A stretch of DNA of 6,300 bases from a virus, in the UHGV virus genome UHGV-1436680. One strand, written 5' to 3'. Below the pieces are notes generated by a model. That model was not told where the DNA came from. It saw only the letters and a list, made by a program, of their open reading frames with translations, and made no database searches. A program made the translations under genes and the position numbers. Position 1 is the stretch's first letter; each line of letters opens with the position of its first letter. This document shows positions 67 through 6,300 of the stretch, piece by piece.

Positions 67-237
67 CAGATAAACAGCCTTGCCAGATTCCTTACCATCC
101 CACGGCTTAAACTCGCCATTGTCCGCCAGCATCAGCGGGGTAAATTCCTGAATAACGCCAGCATCAGCGGCAAAATGTACCAGCGTCGTGGCGACCTGCT
201 GACTGCCTGCAAATAACTCAATGTATGGAGTGTCCAT
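67..237 (-). CDS. Hypothetical protein, 5' part only (57 codons, truncated by the adapter junction); next gene downstream of the capsid gene
   Basis: ATG at 237-235 (complement) sits 5 nt after GGGGGA and 11 nt after the capsid stop. The frame stays open to the insert edge: MDTPYIELFAGSQQVATTLVHFAADAGVIQEFTPLMLADNGEFKPWDGKESGKAVYL. Not in the ORF track because it has no stop. Family not recognised. Confidence 0.5.
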
Positions 238-248
238 AGAATCCCCCG

Positions 249-1304
249 TTAACCAATTTTGACGGTAACAAATTTACGAATATCTGCCGGAACCGGCTGC
301 GGTGCGCTGTGCGTCTGCACGTACTCAATCGCCGGATCGCCGTCCCCAATCCAGTTTTTCGGGTAAAACATGTTTTGCGTTGCGCCCGTTCTTACTGCGT
401 CCTGATCCATAATCGCACCATAGGCCACCAGCCCTTTATTGTTGGTGTTGCCCAGAACCAGCAAATCAGGCTCAAGGAAATATTTTTCTGTGCCGTCGCT
501 GTCAGTGTATTTGCCGGAATAGACGATAAGGGCAATATCGCCCAGATAGCCTTTAAAGCTCACCACTTCGCCCAGGTTTTTACAGGCCAGTTCGGCGGCG
601 GACTCTGAACCACGGGAAAGATCGTACAGCTCACGGAATTTTTTAAAGCTGCGTAACGTGCGCCATACCTCAGCGCCCATAATCATGACGTTTGCGGGGC
701 AACCAGCCTGATCAGCATAAAGCTCGATGTCATAGATTGGGTCGTGCATGTCTTTATCCTGCTCGGACCATTTTTTACCCTTGGCCTGCTCTATGATGCA
801 GTTTTCCGGTATTTTCCAGTCGATTTCATAGCGTTCTATGCCTTCGCCCTCAATGATGTTTTTTCCGGTCGTTATCGCATTCACCGCCAGCCATTCCACG
901 CGCGCTTTAATGGCGTTTACCTGGCGGCGCATGTTGCCAGTAATCAGGCGCATACGGCGGTAGGTAGGGTCGTTAAGCTGTGCCGGATCTTCTCCAGCCA
1001 TGCGCATGATGGTTTTTGTTGGATCGATTTCGTGCTTTGGCTTCATGTAGCCAGGTTTAATTGTGCTGGTTTCGTACCCTTTATCGCGCTGTACCTGGCT
1101 GCCAACCATAGGCGAACAAAACGCCGACATGGTGACTTCTTCAATGTCCAGGGTATCCAGCATGATGTTTTGCGTGCTGAATGTCGCCACGTTCGGGAAA
1201 AACAGCGTAGTAAACAGAGGGTTGAATTTAAAATCCGCAATATCCCCGCGATTCAGGTACATGAAAAGCTGGTTAGTGTTAAGTGCCGTTGCTTTGCCTG
1301 TCAT
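249..1304 (-). CDS. Major capsid protein, phage lambda gpE family (351 aa)
   Basis: Blocks match lambda gpE as I remember it: FKFNPLF (lambda FKFDPLF), PGYMKPKHEI (PGYVKPKHEV), GEDPAQLNDPTYRRMRL (DEDPQNLADPAYRRRRI), FKGYLGDIALIVYSGKYT (YKGMYGDVAIVVYSGQYV), VLGNT, YPKNW, GDPA, SAP. Length is similar (351 vs about 341 aa). SD GGGGGTGA lies 4 nt before the ATG. Confidence 0.9.
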   Translation of the reverse strand: MTGKATALNTNQLFMYLNRGDIADFKFNPLFTTLFFPNVATFSTQNIMLDTLDIEEVTMSAFCSPMVGSQVQRDKGYETSTIKPGYMKPKHEIDPTKTIMRMAGEDPAQLNDPTYRRMRLITGNMRRQVNAIKARVEWLAVNAITTGKNIIEGEGIERYEIDWKIPENCIIEQAKGKKWSEQDKDMHDPIYDIELYADQAGCPANVMIMGAEVWRTLRSFKKFRELYDLSRGSESAAELACKNLGEVVSFKGYLGDIALIVYSGKYTDSDGTEKYFLEPDLLVLGNTNNKGLVAYGAIMDQDAVRTGATQNMFYPKNWIGDGDPAIEYVQTHSAPQPVPADIRKFVTVKIG

Positions 1305-1510
1305 TATTCACCCCCGTGAACCTGATTCATACCCAGCGCCGCGCGTAAATAGGCGCGTACCTGCCAGCCTGTTGACGGCTCAACCATCGCCAGCGGATCA
1401 AGTCCTGCCGCAATGCCTGCTTTTACGTTCTGCTGGTGGCGTTCCTTGAGCGCCTTCACGATGTCGGGGCTTATGTACACCGAAACACCGCCTTTTTTCT
1501 CTTCAGCCAT
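1304..1510 (-). CDS. Hypothetical small protein (68 aa), translationally coupled to the capsid gene; not lambda gpD-like
   Basis: Its TAA stop overlaps the capsid ATG by one base (TAATG). SD AAGAGGAA lies upstream of its ATG at 1510. It is the first ORF after the promoter/operator region. The segment GVSVYISPDIVKALKERHQQ is weakly reminiscent of a ribbon-helix-helix strand-helix, with no firm homology. Confidence 0.5.
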   Translation of the reverse strand: MAEEKKGGVSVYISPDIVKALKERHQQNVKAGIAAGLDPLAMVEPSTGWQVRAYLRAALGMNQVHGGE

Positions 1511-1538
1511 AGTAAGAAATTCCTCTTTGACTTAAAAA

Positions 1539-1568
1539 ATCATAACTGGATGTTCATCCAGTTATGAT
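1539..1568. promoter_or_regulatory. Perfect 30-bp palindrome (14-bp arms, 2-bp spacer), candidate operator over the capsid-unit promoter and start site
   Basis: ATCATAACTGGATG (1539-1552), TT, CATCCAGTTATGAT (1555-1568); the arms are exact reverse complements. It abuts and overlaps further palindromes: TGATTATAATCA (1565-1576) and ATCATGAT (1573-1580). Confidence 0.6.
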
Positions 1569-1594
1569 TATAATCATGATTGCATTTTGTGCAA
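1567..1594 (-). promoter_or_regulatory. Putative sigma70 promoter for the 68-aa/capsid transcription unit
   Basis: On the minus strand: -35 TTGCAC (complement of 1589-1594), 16-nt spacer, -10 TATAAT (complement of 1567-1572). The predicted start near 1560 gives a leader of about 50 nt to the ATG at 1510. By-eye prediction only. Confidence 0.45.
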
Positions 1595-1675
1595 TGATAT
1601 TGAGTTGCGTTGCAAATTATGAAATGATTATCCCGATCATGTGTGTCAGTGCACCAAAAAACCTCATATGCAAAA

Positions 1676-1714
1676 GCCCGATAAGATGCCTCCTGTACTT
1701 ATCGGGCTTTTTTT
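1676..1714. terminator. Intrinsic terminator hairpin, strongest for the plus strand, possibly bidirectional
   Basis: Stem GCCCGATAAG (1676-1685) pairs with CTTATCGGGC (1698-1707) around a 12-nt loop, followed by T7 (1708-1714) on the plus strand and preceded by AAAA, which gives a shorter U tail on the minus strand. Confidence 0.6.
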
Positions 1715-1720
1715 GGGTAC

Positions 1721-1743
1721 AAAAAAGCCGGATTACTCCGGCT
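1721..1743 (-). terminator. Rho-independent terminator ending the minus-strand replication/SSB operon
   Basis: Read on the minus strand just after the TAA stop at 1749-1751: AGCCGGA, loop GTAA, TCCGGCT, then TTTTT(T). A 7-bp GC-rich stem with a T tail. Confidence 0.65.
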
Positions 1744-1748
1744 GTTGA

Positions 1749-2021
1749 TTAGCTGTCTGGGTAATTACGCCATATTTCATCGCTTACACCATCTATACCC
1801 ATTTCAGCATAAGTGCGATCTACTGCCTTTCTCAGGTCTCCGAAGTTATCCGGCGGCTCCGGTGGCTTCTGTGCCTTCCTGGAACATTCCAGCCGTCGCA
1901 TCGTAACCTGATGCCGTTCCTTGTCTGTCTCCACCAGCAGCATGACTTCACCCCATCGCGCCGATGCCCTCCGGTAAAAGCCTTTTGCCTCGAGTTCCTC
2001 CGCTATGCGGTCATGTACCAT
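1749..2021 (-). CDS. Small hypothetical protein (90 aa), possible helical regulator (ANR-family-like resemblance is tentative)
   Basis: Start chosen at the ATG at 2021, which follows GGGGGTGACG located 10 nt after the SSB stop. The 130-aa track ORF would overlap SSB by about 110 nt. Sequence begins MVHDRIAEELEAKGFYRRASARWGEVMLL...; the family call is a weak recollection only. Confidence 0.5.
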   Translation of the reverse strand: MVHDRIAEELEAKGFYRRASARWGEVMLLVETDKERHQVTMRRLECSRKAQKPPEPPDNFGDLRKAVDRTYAEMGIDGVSDEIWRNYPDS

Positions 2022-2031
2022 CGTCACCCCC

Positions 2032-2442
2032 TCAGAACGGAATATCATCACCGTAGGGGTCATCGTCTCCCGCTGGTGGCTGATTACCCTGTGTGCCTGT
2101 GGTTTTGCGTCTGTTCCCGCCAGGACGTGCCGCACGGGCACTGATTACGCTGTCTGCAATAACCTGATAACCCTGCCGCGTTTCCCCGTTCTGTCCGGTC
2201 CACTGGCTGACCTGCATCGTGCCGGATACGCTGGCAACGTCGCCTTTTTGATGTTTAGCCAGGAAGTCGGCCTGCTTACCAAATGCGATGACCGATAGCC
2301 ATAACGTAGCCTGCCCATCCTGCGCCTGACTACATGGCAACGATACCGCCATACGTGCCAGCGTCATTGGTGTGCCCTTGCTGGTCTGTTTTACCTGCGG
2401 GTCGTCCACCAGCCGCCCGTAAGCTGCTATCTGTGCTGTCAT
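2032..2442 (-). CDS. ssb: Single-stranded DNA-binding protein (SSB) homolog, 136 aa
   Basis: The C-terminus DDDPYGDDIPF is the canonical acidic SSB tail ending in IPF. The OB-fold region resembles E. coli SSB, with a Gly/Gln-rich linker (PGGNRRKTTGTQGNQPPAG). The ATG overlaps the upstream stop (ATGA at 2439-2442). Confidence 0.85.
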   Translation of the reverse strand: MTAQIAAYGRLVDDPQVKQTSKGTPMTLARMAVSLPCSQAQDGQATLWLSVIAFGKQADFLAKHQKGDVASVSGTMQVSQWTGQNGETRQGYQVIADSVISARAARPGGNRRKTTGTQGNQPPAGDDDPYGDDIPF

Positions 2443-2690
2443 GATTCCACCTCTCCGGTTTTAACGTTGATGGTTGTCACCTGTTCAGCTTCCGCAATCT
2501 CCCGCTCTGTCAGCGTGGCAAAATTTGCCGCCGTCGTGGTCATGAATGCGCTTATCAGTTCGGGATGTGCTTTCGCGTATCCTTCCCCCGCGTGGCGGTC
2601 TATCGTTCTGATTGCCACCTTTAAGGCGTGCTCTGTCATGTCTAACGCTTTATATTTTGGCTCTGTTCTGTCTCTGTGTTTTTGAGTCAT
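2439..2690 (-). CDS. Hypothetical protein (83 aa), translationally coupled to ssb
   Basis: Start chosen at the internal ATG at 2690 (MTQKHRDRTEPKYKAL...), preceded by GAGGTGG. The 114-aa track version begins inside the iteron array and is probably an over-extension. Family not recognised. Confidence 0.5.
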   Translation of the reverse strand: MTQKHRDRTEPKYKALDMTEHALKVAIRTIDRHAGEGYAKAHPELISAFMTTTAANFATLTEREIAEAEQVTTINVKTGEVES

Positions 2691-2692
2691 TT

Positions 2693-2893
2693 GCCCACCT
2701 CTACCCACTTTTTTCGCCCACTTTTTACGTTTTCCCACTTCGTCCAACGTGGGAAATTTGGGATTTATATCATCTTGTTTCATAGGTATTTTTTAGTGCC
2801 CACTTTTTGGGATATATACACGTGGGAAAGTGGGTAATTTTGTTAAAATTCCGTTAAATCGCCCACCTTTCCCACTTTTAATGCCCACTTTTT
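2693..2893. repeat. Iteron array, putative origin of replication
   Basis: Core CCCAC, usually followed by a T-run (GCCCACTTTTT), occurs 8 times in direct orientation (starting about 2694, 2704, 2717, 2734, 2799, 2862, 2871, 2884) and 3 times inverted as GTGGG (2749, 2822, 2830). Includes the inverted pair TTTCCCAC-N10-GTGGGAAA (2731-2756) and an AT-rich stretch (2757-2820). It lies immediately 3' of the Rep gene and overlaps its stop codon. Confidence 0.7.
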
Positions 2894-4301
2894 ACAGTGG
2901 TCCTACATCATCACCGTCAATGTAGATCACGTCGTCTTTTTCCAGTTTGGCTAACCATCGTTTAAGGTGTTTTGTGTCATACTCCAGCTTTTTCATATCG
3001 TCACGTAACAGCGGGATCGTGCACTTGTCGCCGTGCTGTGTGCGTGAACGTATGCATCCCCATAGCGCGGTATGGTTTTCCGTCTTGTTGCCTGCCTCCT
3101 CGATGCGCTCCAGTTCAACGGGAGGGCGCGGCTTATCCACCACCACCAGCGACGTGATTAACTCCCCGTCAGCGTCGGTAAAAAGCTCCACCACGCGTAA
3201 GTCATATGCGGCTTCTTTGAGTTCCTCCGCGTCCTTCATTTTGGTGCATGAGATAACCAGCGCTTCGCTTCCTGCGTCCTCCCTGCGTATCCGGTATTCA
3301 GCATCCAGCGAAGCACGAAATGCACTGGAACCGCGCGCGCCTTTCGTCTCATCCTTGCCGGAATGGTGAACCACCAGCACCGTGGCCCCTGTGCGTCGTT
3401 TCAGTTCGTCACAACCACGGATAAACGCCCCCATATCACGGGAATCATTTTCATCATTACCACCAAAGCAACGCGCCAGCGTATCCAGAATAATCATGCG
3501 AACAGGTTTACCCGTTTCCCTCTCCACCTGACGGGCAGCGATAACCATTTCATCAACATCAAGCGGGACCGCCGGAAAGATGGGACGGTTTACCAGATAC
3601 AGATTTTTCACCTGCTCACCGTGCACAACCTCCCAGGCTTTTACACGACGCGGAACGCCGATACCGCCTTCACCAACCACATAGAGAACAGCGCCATGCG
3701 CCACCCTGCGGCCTCCCCACTGGCGGCCCGTGGAAACGTGACACGCCCACGATCCGGCAAGGAATGATTTATAGGAACCGCTCGCCCCGTATATGCTGCA
3801 AAGCGACGATGCCGGAATAATCCCCTTTACCACGTAATCAAGCTGTGTGTCGTATCCGGTAGATCCAACGCTCATCGGTAGCGTGGTTTTTCGCTGGGGG
3901 ATTTTTTTCATGACCAGGCTTTCCCCGCGTTCCCATGCCTCCCTAAGCCGTGGAAGCTGGTCGCTCCATTCCTCCAGCAATTCGAAATTTTCAGAAAGTA
4001 GCCGCGCCTCCTGGACTCCGGCGATCGCCAGTTTCGTGGCGATGGTTAACAGCTGCGGCTCTTCAATATTTCCGGCGCGTATCACCGTCGCCCTGTATCG
4101 CCCATCATCAACAATCTGGAGGTTATCCAGTTCGCTTAACTGATAACGCCCCAGATAAACGGGAGGGACTGGATCTCCTGCTTTTTTTGCCTGTGCAATG
4201 ATGTAATGCTCTGCGAATGAATGAGCATCAATACCCGCAAAAATAATCGCATCGGTGTATTTATCTTTCGGTAATCGTTTTACGTTCGGTGCCAGTTTCA
4301 T
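2892..4301 (-). CDS. Replication protein, RepA/DnaB-like RecA-fold helicase-family ATPase (AAA_25-like), 469 aa, with an unassigned N-terminal domain of about 150 aa and a C-terminal putative DNA-binding region
   Basis: P-loop-like GASGSYKS (complement of 3765-3788), Walker B-like VRMIILDTLARCFGG, and VLVVHHSGKD...GSSAF matching the hhhHHxxK...GssA pattern of RepA-type helicases. Strong SD AGGAG 7 nt before the ATG. Start overlaps the upstream stop (ATGA at 4298-4301). Iterons lie directly downstream. No primase motifs seen. Confidence 0.8.
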   Translation of the reverse strand: MKLAPNVKRLPKDKYTDAIIFAGIDAHSFAEHYIIAQAKKAGDPVPPVYLGRYQLSELDNLQIVDDGRYRATVIRAGNIEEPQLLTIATKLAIAGVQEARLLSENFELLEEWSDQLPRLREAWERGESLVMKKIPQRKTTLPMSVGSTGYDTQLDYVVKGIIPASSLCSIYGASGSYKSFLAGSWACHVSTGRQWGGRRVAHGAVLYVVGEGGIGVPRRVKAWEVVHGEQVKNLYLVNRPIFPAVPLDVDEMVIAARQVERETGKPVRMIILDTLARCFGGNDENDSRDMGAFIRGCDELKRRTGATVLVVHHSGKDETKGARGSSAFRASLDAEYRIRREDAGSEALVISCTKMKDAEELKEAAYDLRVVELFTDADGELITSLVVVDKPRPPVELERIEEAGNKTENHTALWGCIRSRTQHGDKCTIPLLRDDMKKLEYDTKHLKRWLAKLEKDDVIYIDGDDVGPL

Positions 4302-4597
4302 TTTTTACTCCTGAATCCGTTAATCATGGTTTTCAGCTTCTGGATGTTTGCCCGTGCCCTGGCGTTGCTGGTGGGCACGTTATGCGGCGCGGTCTGTACC
4401 AGAGAAAAATCACGCCGGAACTGATAAACAGGCATCACGCAATCATATTCGTAACCTTCACGGCGGTAGGTTACGCGCCGTTCTTCCACGCCCTTAATCA
4501 TTACCGTGCCGCCGTACTGGTCGCGGTAAATATCACCGCGCGTAAATTTAGGGTGAGTGTTGCCACTGGCAGTTAAGCCAGAATATTTAAGTTTCAT
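4298..4597 (-). CDS. Hypothetical protein (99 aa); possible DUF4222-like small protein of the kind found upstream of satellite replication genes (low-certainty recollection)
   Basis: ORF with GGAGA upstream of the ATG, coupled to the Rep start by an ATGA overlap. Contains the motif RVTYRREGYEYDCVMPVYQFRRDF. Confidence 0.55.
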   Translation of the reverse strand: MKLKYSGLTASGNTHPKFTRGDIYRDQYGGTVMIKGVEERRVTYRREGYEYDCVMPVYQFRRDFSLVQTAPHNVPTSNARARANIQKLKTMINGFRSKK

Positions 4598-4602
4598 TAT
4601 TT

Positions 4603-4836
4603 TTATTCTCCGGTGTGCTGTTCGTTATATCTGTCGTGCAATGTCTCTATTTCCTGCAACTCATTTATTACAGGCTCAAGAAGCGTTATTAATGATGTAA
4701 TAATCCGCGTTTTTTTTGCATTACGTTCATTATCGCCAAAGGATTCAAGGCACATCCGCAATATTTCGTACATACCTTCAGCGTAAGCAAGGGCACTAAA
4801 TGCGCGGTCTATTGTTTCAAGATAAATATCACGCAT
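4603..4836 (-). CDS. Hypothetical small protein (77 aa)
   Basis: ATG preceded by GAGGA. The start overlaps the stop of the upstream ORF by 8 nt (ATGCGTGA). Lies in a low-GC stretch. No family recognised. Confidence 0.5.
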   Translation of the reverse strand: MRDIYLETIDRAFSALAYAEGMYEILRMCLESFGDNERNAKKTRIITSLITLLEPVINELQEIETLHDRYNEQHTGE

Positions 4837-5062
4837 GGCTTACATCCTCAGGAAATTTTCTTCTGTAACGCGCCTCTGCCACATATTCCGCATAATCGGC
4901 GGCGATATTCAGTACATCAAGTCCCGTTGATTTATATTCTTTCGTGGAAAGTAAGAAAAAAGCCGCTCTAATAAGTTCTGGCATTGACGAAAGCGCATCA
5001 GCCGCATCATCAGGAACGCCGGAAAATTCTTGTTTCAGGGAATTAAAACGATCATCACGCAT
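4829..5062 (-). CDS. Hypothetical small protein (77 aa)
   Basis: The ATG immediately follows the G9 tract (GGGGGGGGGTTATG). The ORF overlaps the 3' end of the upstream ORF by 28 nt. No family recognised. Confidence 0.5.
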   Translation of the reverse strand: MRDDRFNSLKQEFSGVPDDAADALSSMPELIRAAFFLLSTKEYKSTGLDVLNIAADYAEYVAEARYRRKFPEDVSHA

Positions 5063-5277
5063 AACCCCCCCCCATTTTCACAATCAGCAACAAGAATATT
5101 TTTAGCGTCATTCAGCGACCGCGTTGCGATGTATCGGATACATTCCAGGGCGAACTGTGTCCGGTCTTTCTGTTCTTCTCCCTGCGCAAGCTCTGCCGTG
5201 CATTCAATATCAATAAGCGCGTGCATCAGCGTAGTGAGTGCGGCGGCTGCTGCGTTCGGTGTGGTTTTATTGTGCAT
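5035..5277 (-). CDS. Hypothetical small protein (80 aa)
   Basis: Start chosen at the internal ATG (MHNKTTPNAAAAAL...) preceded by GGGGGA. The 3' end reads through the G9 tract (ENGGGLCVMIVLIP). Predicted helical; no family recognised. Confidence 0.45.
   Translation of the reverse strand: MHNKTTPNAAAAALTTLMHALIDIECTAELAQGEEQKDRTQFALECIRYIATRSLNDAKNILVADCENGGGLCVMIVLIP
5065..5073. repeat. Homopolymeric C9 (G9 on the coding strand) tract at the junction of two overlapping small ORFs
   Basis: Nine consecutive C at 5065-5073, read directly from the sequence. Confidence 0.9.
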
Positions 5278-5467
5278 AGGTTTCCCCCTGACGAATACGG
5301 GCGGCGAATACAGCAACACAACCGGACGGGCAACGGCTACGCGCTTCGCGTTCCGTCCAGGCGGTTACGTGGATGATTTGAGATTCTCCGGCACTCAGGG
5401 CCAGAAAACGCCACACAAAGGCCGTTTGTGTGTGTACAAGGTGTGGTATATGATTTACGGCAACCAT
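5267..5467 (-). CDS. Hypothetical small protein (66 aa), possible first gene of the minus-strand early operon
   Basis: ATG at 5467 preceded by a strong SD (AGGAG, 5-nt spacer). The frame is open for 66 codons (MVAVNHIPHLVHTQTAFVWRF...). The stop lies 8 nt downstream of the next ORF's ATG. Support is start context only. Confidence 0.35.
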   Translation of the reverse strand: MVAVNHIPHLVHTQTAFVWRFLALSAGESQIIHVTAWTEREARSRCPSGCVAVFAARIRQGETYAQ

Positions 5468-5557
5468 AACGGCTCCTAGTTTACGTTGTTGGTTAGAAGC
5501 CCTGCGAGTGGTAATGACACTTGCGGGGCTTTGCTTTTTTAAGTGCTCTTGTGTTAA

Positions 5558-5601
5558 GGTGACCACCTAACAATGGAAAGGCTAATTCAATAGGTGACCA
5601 C
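5558..5601. promoter_or_regulatory. Two copies of GGTGACCAC(C) in the divergent intergenic region; candidate operator half-sites
   Basis: GGTGACCACC at 5558-5567 (near-palindrome, arms GGTG/CACC) and GGTGACCAC at 5593-5601, 35 bp apart. The second overlaps the SD and start of the Arc-like gene. A weak -35/-10 candidate (TGACCA, 17 nt, TAATTC) overlaps the first copy. Confidence 0.4.
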
Positions 5602-5793
5602 TTGTCAACAATCAAACGCGATAAAAGCCCTAAAGGGGACGGGCAATCCCCACAATTCAGAATGCGAATTTCTCCAGAGCTAAAAGAGCAATTCGACAAA
5701 GAAGCACAGAGCGACGGCATAAGCCTAGCCAACTGGCTTAAAGAGTTGGGGCGCACTGAACTAAAGCGGCGCGGCATAGAACCCAAAGGATAA
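5602..5793 (+). CDS. Arc/Mnt-like ribbon-helix-helix DNA-binding protein (63 aa, TTG start)
   Basis: PQFRMRISPELKEQFDKEAQSDGISLANWLKEL aligns with the P22 Arc (PQFNLRWPREVLDLVRKVAEENGRSVNSEIYQRV) and Mnt beta-strand/helix A/helix B pattern. SD AGGTGA lies 4 nt before the TTG. The internal ATG at 5662 would delete the beta-strand. Confidence 0.6.
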   Translation: MSTIKRDKSPKGDGQSPQFRMRISPELKEQFDKEAQSDGISLANWLKELGRTELKRRGIEPKG

Positions 5794-5850
5794 AAACTAT
5801 CAGCGCCGTGGTGTGAGGTATTACGGCGCATTGCTATGCAGGACAACACA

Positions 5851-6024
5851 ATGACCGATAAAGAATTGACCAAAACATTATCACCGGCACGGAAAAGACG
5901 GCGCAGAAAGATAGAGCATGAATCAGAAAGATTCGCACCATGTGCTTTTGCCCTTGAGCAATTCCTTAAAGAGTATAGGGAAAAGCGCTCATTGCAGGTA
6001 TGGCAACGAACTGAACCAGACTGA
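5851..6024 (+). CDS. Hypothetical small basic protein (57 aa)
   Basis: ATG at 5851 with AGGA 7 nt upstream. Arg-rich segment ARKRRRRK. Followed by a terminator. Weak evidence, no homology recognised. Confidence 0.3.
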   Translation: MTDKELTKTLSPARKRRRRKIEHESERFAPCAFALEQFLKEYREKRSLQVWQRTEPD

Positions 6025-6118
6025 TTGCATTGCCCACCAGCCTGATAGCGGCTATCATCCCCGTGCTTATGTTTGGGATCACATACACATAAGGCGCAGC
6101 GGGTTAATTGTTCAGAAA

Positions 6119-6146
6119 GGCGGCTCCATATCGGGGCCGCTTTTTT
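6119..6146 (+). terminator. Rho-independent terminator for the plus-strand Arc-like unit
   Basis: Stem GCGGCTCC (6120-6127) pairs with GGGGCCGC (6133-6140), with one G-U pair, around a 5-nt loop, followed by T6 (6141-6146). Confidence 0.6.
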
Positions 6147-6239
6147 CGTGTTTGTCATATCTGTGATACCCGTTAAGCAGCCGTTCCGCGTGCTTCCTGT
6201 TCGCGTTCTTTCTGCCAGGCCAACACATCATCCTCATAC

Positions 6240-6300
6240 CTGTCTCTTATACACATCTGACGCTGCCGACGAAGAGGATAGTGTAGATCTCGGTGGTCGC
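6240..6300. other. Illumina Nextera adapter (technical): mosaic end, read-1 adapter, i5 index, P5 sequence (reverse-complement orientation)
   Basis: CTGTCTCTTATACACATCT (6240-6258), GACGCTGCCGACGA (6259-6272), AGAGGATA (6273-6280; reverse complement of TATCCTCT, the S503/N503 index as I recall it), GTGTAGATCTCGGTGGTCGC (6281-6300, start of the P5 complement). Confidence 0.95.

Follow-up and report, generated by a model that had tools for sequence, protein, structure and literature searches.

A short repeat fills the gap between a helicase gene, rep, and its 3' neighbour in the virus genome UHGV-1436680, and the locus raises the question of whether these repeats form a replication origin, which protein would read them and what kind of element they would serve. 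The window, that is, the whole stretch of 6,300 nt that was analysed, is 100% identical to the chromosome of Escherichia coli MS 21-1 from position 67 to 6240, and E. coli DNA is confined to that interval. Positions 1–66 comprise P7, an index and a read-2 adapter ending in AGATGTGTATAAGAGACAG, and positions 6241–6300 comprise CTGTCTCTTATACACATCT, an i5 index and P5. We take both ends to be Illumina/Nextera library adapters; the same ends occur at the contig ends of unrelated 'phage' records, and one CCCAC site, at 38, falls within the adapter. A megablast search of deposited phage genomes with the window matched the adapter ends only. Residues 135–469 of Rep, compared with phage genomes by tblastn, recovered only distant helicase cores, with at most 41% identity in true phages; thus, the module of Rep and putative origin is not a common phage replicon.

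The island and its repeat array

The source locus in MS 21-1 is a ~10 kb island at tRNA-Pro, which contains, in order, int, an HTH regulator, an Icd-like gene, a DUF4222 gene, rep, the array, an 83-aa gene, SSB, PerC, capsid E, a decoration protein and terS, all on one strand. Tail and lysis genes are absent from the island annotation in the genomic locus (L001). [quoted passage not shown] The island is also syntenic with the published satellite EcCICFT073. By its gene content, the element is a PICI of the EcCICFT073 type, and the pri-rep-ori module of PICIs, to which the first-pass annotation had likened the locus, was the right frame, with a gene order that matches EcCICFT073. The array itself has two properties of PICI origins, as it lies immediately 3' of rep on the same transcription strand and consists of short iterons in two sets, in opposed orientations, around an AT-rich region.

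Counted on both strands, CCCAC occurs 18 times in the window, with 11 copies at 2694–2888 and seven in the other 6.1 kb. Eight of the 11 array cores lie in one orientation and three (2749, 2822 and 2830) in the other (Table 1). In 300 first-order Markov shuffles of the window, each scored by its densest 201-nt stretch, CCCAC reached at most 5 copies (mean 2.3), and sequences simulated with the base composition of the region averaged 0.76 copies, with 6 as the highest count. When every 5-mer was considered, the shuffles averaged 6.8 copies in their densest cluster and reached 9, and CCCAC is the most clustered 5-mer of the real window. Within the 30-kb genomic locus the array is the sole CCCAC cluster, with only scattered single AAGTGGG sites elsewhere, and 66 kb of CFT073 DNA holds no more than 4 copies per 200 nt. 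The cluster could be imagined to have arisen by chance or from low complexity in an AT-rich intergenic stretch, given that the plus strand is T-rich and the motif short, but the copy number stands at 11 against maxima of 5–6 in the nulls, and the architecture is conserved and has evolved in concert across genera. We attach next to no probability to this explanation, which is refuted by the nulls, by the E. coli alignment A1 and by conservation in 79 of 88 related loci.

The first-pass annotation, made from the letters of the window, fares well in this respect: its count of 11 copies is borne out, the enumeration against shuffled sequence that it proposed yields the excess just described, and an array-like density is missing from the host-type DNA sampled. 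It overstated the uniformity of the copies, however, in assigning most of them the extended form GCCCACTTTTT, since the exact form occurs three times only (2716, 2798 and 2883). Among the 11 cores, G precedes CCCAC in five and three or more T residues follow it in six; read along the rep sense strand, the iterons give the working consensus (A)AAAGTGGG(C/A/T). The inverted pair that it reported, TTTCCCAC-N10-GTGGGAAA, is present at 2731–2738 and 2749–2756, as is the adjacent AT-rich stretch, with a GC content of 0.39–0.41 over 2601–3000 compared with about 0.5–0.58 in the flanks.

The array takes up the 200 nt that separate the rep stop codon from the next gene. The rep TAA lies at 2892–2894 on the minus strand, and its A-run extends into the first iteron, TAAAAAGTGGGC. 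The iterons of the left arm, in the sense of rep, are AAAAGTGGGC, AAAAGTGGGA and AAGGTGGGC, the first of which overlaps the stop codon. In the origin core, iterons face each other across a TATATA element, which is the proposed melting site. At the other end, the iteron at 2694 sits between the Shine-Dalgarno sequence of the next gene (GAGG, 2698–2701, 7 nt upstream) and its ATG at 2690. An annotated 114-aa ORF beginning at 2783 runs through the array; its start had been suspected to be wrong, and rightly so, as the RefSeq start is at 2690 and the alignment with the EcCICFT073 homologue begins no earlier than residue 14 of the 83-aa form.

Table 1. Coordinates of the array, its parts and the adjacent genes in the window
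Feature	Position	Strand	Description
Left iteron arm	2862–2892	-	Three direct iterons, cores 2884, 2871, 2862
AT-rich spacer A	2835–2861		27 nt
Origin core (putative)	2799–2834		Inverted iterons 2830, 2822; then GTATATAT 2812–2819; then direct iteron 2799
AT-rich spacer B	2754–2798		45 nt
Right iteron arm	2694–2753	-	Inverted iteron 2749, N10, direct iterons 2734, 2717, 2704, 2694
rep, 469-aa RepA-family helicase/initiator	2892–4301	-	Pfam AAA_25, PDB profile, Foldseek, AF2 model
Rep C-terminal winged-helix domain, aa 405–469, proposed iteron reader	2895–3089	-	
His445 codon, recognition-helix N-cap, proposed reader of base 4 in GTG-N-G	2967–2969	-	
Downstream gene, 83 aa	2439–2690	-	RefSeq CDS L001 14373–14624
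SSB, island-encoded	2032–2442	-	Pfam SSB E 4e-17
DUF4222 gene	4298–4597	-	Overlaps rep start by 4 nt

Other signals were sought in the same interval. A DnaA box with 0–1 mismatch is lacking within the array, as had been noted at first reading, and the sole match with two mismatches (2829–2837) is an iteron. Scans for sigma-70 promoters and intrinsic terminators over 2400–3100 found neither, and an Rfam scan of the whole window returned no family. The lack of DnaA boxes fits initiation encoded by the element, as the first-pass annotation suggested.

Conservation of the array and comparison with published islands

Comparisons across related loci provide evidence that the array is an appendage of rep. 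The sample comprised 80 loci of other species that encode a Rep homologue, to which variants from E. coli and additional contigs were added. An array of this architecture follows the rep stop codon in 79 of 88 related loci, which represent Escherichia, Salmonella, Citrobacter, Xenorhabdus, Pantoea, Kosakonia, Serratia, Pectobacterium, Morganella and other genera; about nine of the 88 lack a clear array or a recognisable core unit. The layout opens with 2–3 direct iterons at the stop codon, a spacer, an inverted iteron, 26–28 nt containing (G)TATATA and a direct iteron, and closes with an AT-rich spacer and 3–4 direct iterons, often with one extra inverted copy. The central unit, with facing cores 30–32 nt apart, is likewise found in 79 of the 88, and the TATA element is conserved in alignment A1. 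Homologues of the origin region (301-nt query) are present in 837 of 5,426 complete E. coli genomes, 353 of which cover at least 80% of the query, and they also occur in many Enterobacterales.

The genes 3' of the array vary by locus and include SSB/PerC, ClpP-capsid fusions and tail genes. As the array stays constant while these genes change, it belongs to rep and not to the gene that follows. In three loci, from E. coli (L092), Yokenella (L090) and Salmonella (L093), the module of Rep and array has ClpP-protease/capsid fusions downstream, and in a fourth (L091) it adjoins tail genes; such varied neighbours suggest that the module moves between satellite or prophage backbones.

These comparisons also bear on whether the repeats might instead be operators for the AlpA-like HTH protein or for PerC, controlling the SSB-PerC-capsid operon without any role in replication. 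The array does lie upstream of this gene block, and the island encodes several small DNA-binding regulators. However, the array remains next to rep in loci with wholly different downstream genes, the 2400–3100 interval contains no sigma-70-like promoter, and EcCICFT073 has near-identical downstream genes yet different iterons and a different Rep. The array further covaries with a Rep residue that is the sole separator among close E. coli and Salmonella alleles (see below). An operator function is therefore very unlikely in comparison with an origin served by Rep.

The iterons of each array change together. Base 4 of the core, GTG-N-G, changes in concert across the whole array: the window has GTGGGC/A, and other E. 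coli islands in alignment A1 have GTGGGG, GTGAGG or GTGAGT, with Reps that are 96–99% identical to the window Rep over residues 135–400. Elsewhere the cores are GTGAGGA (Xenorhabdus), GTGCGGC, GTGGGGA, GTGGGGGA, GTGCGG, GTGCGC, GTGTGG and GTGGGAC. Xenorhabdus beddingii (L003, 5027–5455) carries two complete arrays in tandem after rep. The first, GTGAGGA, is cognate to the adjacent Rep, which has Asn at 445; the second has the same architecture with GTGGGGA and constitutes an orphan origin of different specificity, at which another satellite's Rep might replicate the element.

A close published counterpart of the island is EcCICFT073, the prototypic PICI of Gram-negative bacteria, which shares its element type and gene order. 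Experiments placed the EcCICFT073 origin immediately beyond the 3' end of rep, where an AT-rich region separates two sets of iterons; a rep-ori segment maintains a plasmid, and deletion of the origin lowers maintenance (PMC6092414). This is the one functional origin test that we found in the literature, and it concerns a different Rep family: Pri-Rep of EcCICFT073 is a 584-aa D5/SF3-type protein with GTCTACC iterons, whereas the window Rep is a 469-aa AAA_25 protein with GTGGGC/A. The two proteins have only their first ~130 residues in common (46% identity). On the other side of the array, the 83-aa gene product is 83% identical to an 85-aa EcCICFT073 protein from residue 14 onward. Shared flanks on both sides place the limits of the exchanged block at Rep residue ~130 and at the start of the following gene; the iterons thus travel together with the helicase and its C-terminus.

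A second published island, EcCIO42, has a Rep of the same family as the window, with N445, and a GTGAGG array in the same layout. EcCIO42 showed no transfer in the study of Fillol-Salom et al. 2018 (PMC6092414). Its publication with this Rep and this array layout means that the kind of origin is already in the literature; judged from the aligned sequences, the window origin is a specificity variant of the EcCIO42 type, in which GTGGGC/A and His445 replace GTGAGG and N445.

On this evidence, it is very probable that the array is the vegetative replication origin of an EcCICFT073-type PICI, and that it is read by the Rep C-terminal winged helix. An unlikely alternative is that Rep binds the array mainly as a control element, for copy number or incompatibility by handcuffing, for autoregulation or for translational repression of the downstream gene, and that replication starts elsewhere. 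Iterons of plasmids serve both initiation and control, and P4 needs its ori together with a separate cis replication region. The position of the last iteron, with the Shine-Dalgarno sequence of the 83-aa gene on one side and the ATG on the other, would suit such a role, as would the absence of a promoter or terminator between rep and the downstream genes, such that Rep would bind within a transcript. Against this, the 30-kb locus contains no second iteron cluster, 79 of 88 relatives have the AT-rich TATATA core at a constant spacing, an arrangement typical of an origin, and deletion of the equivalent region in EcCICFT073 lowered plasmid maintenance (PMC6092414).

The Rep protein and its pairing with the iterons

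The gene next to the array had been read as a Rep helicase, and this identification stands. Rep consists of an N-terminal domain (aa 1–134), a RecA-fold core (aa ~135–330), a beta-rich linker and a winged helix (aa ~405–469). Pfam AAA_25 matches aa 151–318 (E 2e-44), and the only PDB sequence match is RSF1010 RepA (1g8y; profile E 4.6e-5, positions 135–306). An AlphaFold2 model built on 58 homologues, searched with Foldseek, retrieved RecA-fold motors only: RSF1010 RepA (1olo, 1nlf and 1g8y; TM-score about 0.6 on target), Twinkle, T7 gp4 and KaiC. Both the 1g8y profile and the Foldseek matches thus support homology to the family of RSF1010/IncQ RepA, itself a hexameric RecA-fold helicase. Residues 1–134 and 331–469 gave no significant Pfam family, and a primase domain is recognisable neither in the window Rep nor elsewhere in the island. 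Homologues of ~700 aa in Serratia and Xenorhabdus have a zinc ribbon and a Toprim primase at the N-terminus, suggesting that the family is one of T7-gp4-like primase-helicases with an origin-reading tail, of which the window protein is a version without the primase.

The model has moderate confidence in the helicase region (mean pLDDT 73) and pLDDT values of 87–92 over aa 405–469. In this C-terminal domain, helices at 408–422, 429–438 and 446–455 (the recognition helix) are followed by a beta-hairpin wing at 459–468, and residue 445 immediately precedes the third helix. When the domain was modelled and searched with Foldseek apart from the full protein, its best structural match was the winged-helix domain of Orc/Cdc6. 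Among E. coli alleles, Rep varies most in this C-terminal stretch.

To relate Rep to the iterons, 55 Reps with clear arrays were aligned and their columns ranked by the information each carries on core base 4. Column 445 carries all of the class information (mutual information 1.41 bits, class entropy 1.405). In this set, H or K occurs with G in 28 pairs, N with A in 20 and S with C in seven. Residue 445 is H, N, G, S, K, L or Q among 221 homologues, and alleles looked up later comprise two N with GTGAGG, three G with GTGCG(C/G), a single L with GTGTGGC and a single Q with GTGGGAC. Altogether, 63 of 63 pairs of Rep and origin, including EcCIO42, follow the scheme H/K/Q–G, N–A, S/G–C and L–T, a raw count that is inflated by clade structure and an association that is a correlation owed in part to shared ancestry. 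A pairing of Gln445 with A had been guessed and was rejected, the origin of the Q allele being G-type.

The strongest subset consists of the switches within one background, namely H/N in four recognition-helix backgrounds of E. coli and Salmonella, and S/L/Q within one clade. In each of the four H/N backgrounds the helix is identical or nearly so apart from H versus N, some 18-mers differing in that residue solely, and the origin is G-type or A-type accordingly. Among nine close pairs from E. coli and Salmonella, with 203 variable columns, only 445 separates G-type from A-type. Asn commonly prefers adenine, His and Lys prefer guanine and Leu prefers thymine, and the observed pairings of residue 445 with base 4 fit these preferences.

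The covariation, the winged-helix model and the variable C-terminus together suggest that the predicted winged helix reads the iterons, with residue 445 facing base 4. Covariation with a recognition-helix residue also fits the first-pass proposal of the Rep C-terminal domain as the binding domain. More broadly, the proposal of an iteron-type origin served by the neighbouring helicase gains support from the RepA-family gene, the PICI type, the conserved layout and the covariation with Rep. In the literature we found no earlier work specific to RepA-type PICI origins or to a Rep-iteron code. We consider it rather more probable than otherwise that residue 445 alone sets origin specificity in RecA-fold helicase-initiators, according to H/K/Q–G, N–A, S/G–C and L–T. 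If so, repeated H/N switches with concerted G/A change in all 9–11 iterons would make co-resident satellites orthogonal, compatible replicons, and the double origin of X. beddingii would allow the Rep of one island to replicate another island.

The same covariation weighs on the suggestion that the array might be a pac or cos site for the small terminase of the island. TerS is encoded in the island, and TerS sites can be repeated short motifs. The array, however, lies 3.5 kb from terS, covaries with Rep, and is attached to rep in relatives that include EcCICFT073-type islands without terS. A packaging site is thus extremely unlikely.

Proposed mechanism and relation to other replicons

A plausible sequence of events is as follows. 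After induction, Rep would recognise the 11 short iterons through its C-terminal winged helix, with His445, at the start of the recognition helix, reading the fourth base of the core GTG-G-G. Rep bound to the two arms of direct iterons, and to the opposed iterons on either side of GTATATAT (2812–2819), would assemble helicase rings; these would open the AT-rich centre and self-load, with no need of DnaA. The island SSB would then coat the single strands, and the host primase and polymerase would complete replication. That Rep physically binds the iterons, melts the DNA at TATATA, loads itself and relies on the host primase is our inference from the features described above.

The architecture resembles that of the SaPI origins of Staphylococcus. 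The SaPI ori contains 6–12 penta- or hexanucleotide iterons directly downstream of rep, with an AT-rich centre and opposed iterons on either side; the C-terminal winged helix of a self-loading helicase, which needs neither a dedicated initiator nor a loader, binds the iterons, and two hexamers are believed to load, one on each flank of the AT-rich centre (PMC9371898). The Reps of SaPIs belong to the AAA+ MCM-like helicases and have 3'-5' polarity, whereas the window Rep has a RecA fold like that of RSF1010 RepA and T7 gp4. The two motors are unrelated, and the likeness is thus one of architecture and not of motor ancestry. By analogy, we infer that the window mechanism follows the logic of the SaPI origin with an unrelated motor.

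Other replicons resemble the window in part. The alpha protein of P4 is a satellite helicase with a C-terminal origin-binding domain for short repeats and acts independently of DnaA. The window resembles P4 in being a satellite replicon in which the helicase and a predicted origin-reading domain are combined in one protein, with no DnaA box, but P4 alpha is a primase with an SF3 helicase, its octamer iterons are different and two separate cis regions are involved, compared with a single array, a RecA motor and no primase domain here. The window Rep gave no D5_N or Pox_D5 hit, unlike Pri-Rep of EcCICFT073. The comparison with P4 drawn by the first-pass annotation thus holds as an analogy for an ori downstream of the helicase gene, but it does not extend to the helicase superfamily or the iterons.

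In RSF1010, RepA lacks a DNA-reading domain, and 20-bp iterons are bound by a separate protein, RepC; a primase, RepB', acts with ssi sites. The helicase core of RSF1010 RepA is homologous to that of the window Rep, in which, unlike RSF1010, a winged helix is predicted to be fused to the helicase. Genes for a RepC-type initiator or a RepB' primase were not found in the island, which does not have the composition of an RSF1010/IncQ replicon. Classical iteron plasmids (pPS10, RK2, F and P1) combine iterons of 17–22 bp with DnaA boxes, and their WH1-WH2 initiator brings in the host DnaB. As in the window, repeated initiator sites adjoin an AT-rich unwinding region in these plasmids, whereas the window has cores of 5–8 nt and no DnaA box, and its initiator would itself be the helicase. 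A Rep_3-type origin is not indicated, as the window Rep matches AAA_25 instead of Rep_3 and the array contains no DnaA box with one mismatch or fewer.

For annotation, these results would locate the origin of the island, mark the 114-aa ORF as spurious and make the 'helicase RepA family protein' a probable initiator as well. The pairs of Rep and iterons constitute a natural specificity series whose members differ by one residue and one base. They bear on how satellites avoid replication incompatibility, and on how self-loading of a RecA-fold helicase can proceed when neither DnaA nor a loader takes part. The find leaves the known picture of the PICI element type unchanged, and the residue-base relation is of specialist interest.

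Several neighbouring genes may contribute to the replicon. The position of the island SSB is the same in EcCICFT073 and other E. coli islands, and SSB is a probable accessory of the replicon. The DUF4222 gene always lies directly upstream of rep, both in islands with this Rep family and in EcCICFT073 with its SF3-type protein; the adjacency is seen in EcCICFT073, Yokenella, Enterobacter, Salmonella and other loci, and suggests a conserved partnership between the DUF4222 protein and the replication protein. The N-terminal domain of Rep (3900–4301, minus strand), which is shared with the otherwise unrelated SF3-type Pri-Rep of EcCICFT073 as noted above, may have a docking function that is particular to the PICIs of E. 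coli.

The remaining observations concern other genes of the island. A CDS at 4829–5277 (minus strand) is frameshifted in MS 21-1 according to RefSeq, and the window has overlapping ORFs at 4829–5062 and 5035–5319. A gene for a PerC-family activator lies at 1749–2141 (minus strand); PICI-encoded members of this family can activate the LEE pathogenicity island (PMC6092414). The island also carries a lambda gpE-like capsid gene at 249–1304 (minus strand), and deletion of the gpE-like capsid gene of EcCICFT073 left interference and transfer unaffected (PMC6092414).
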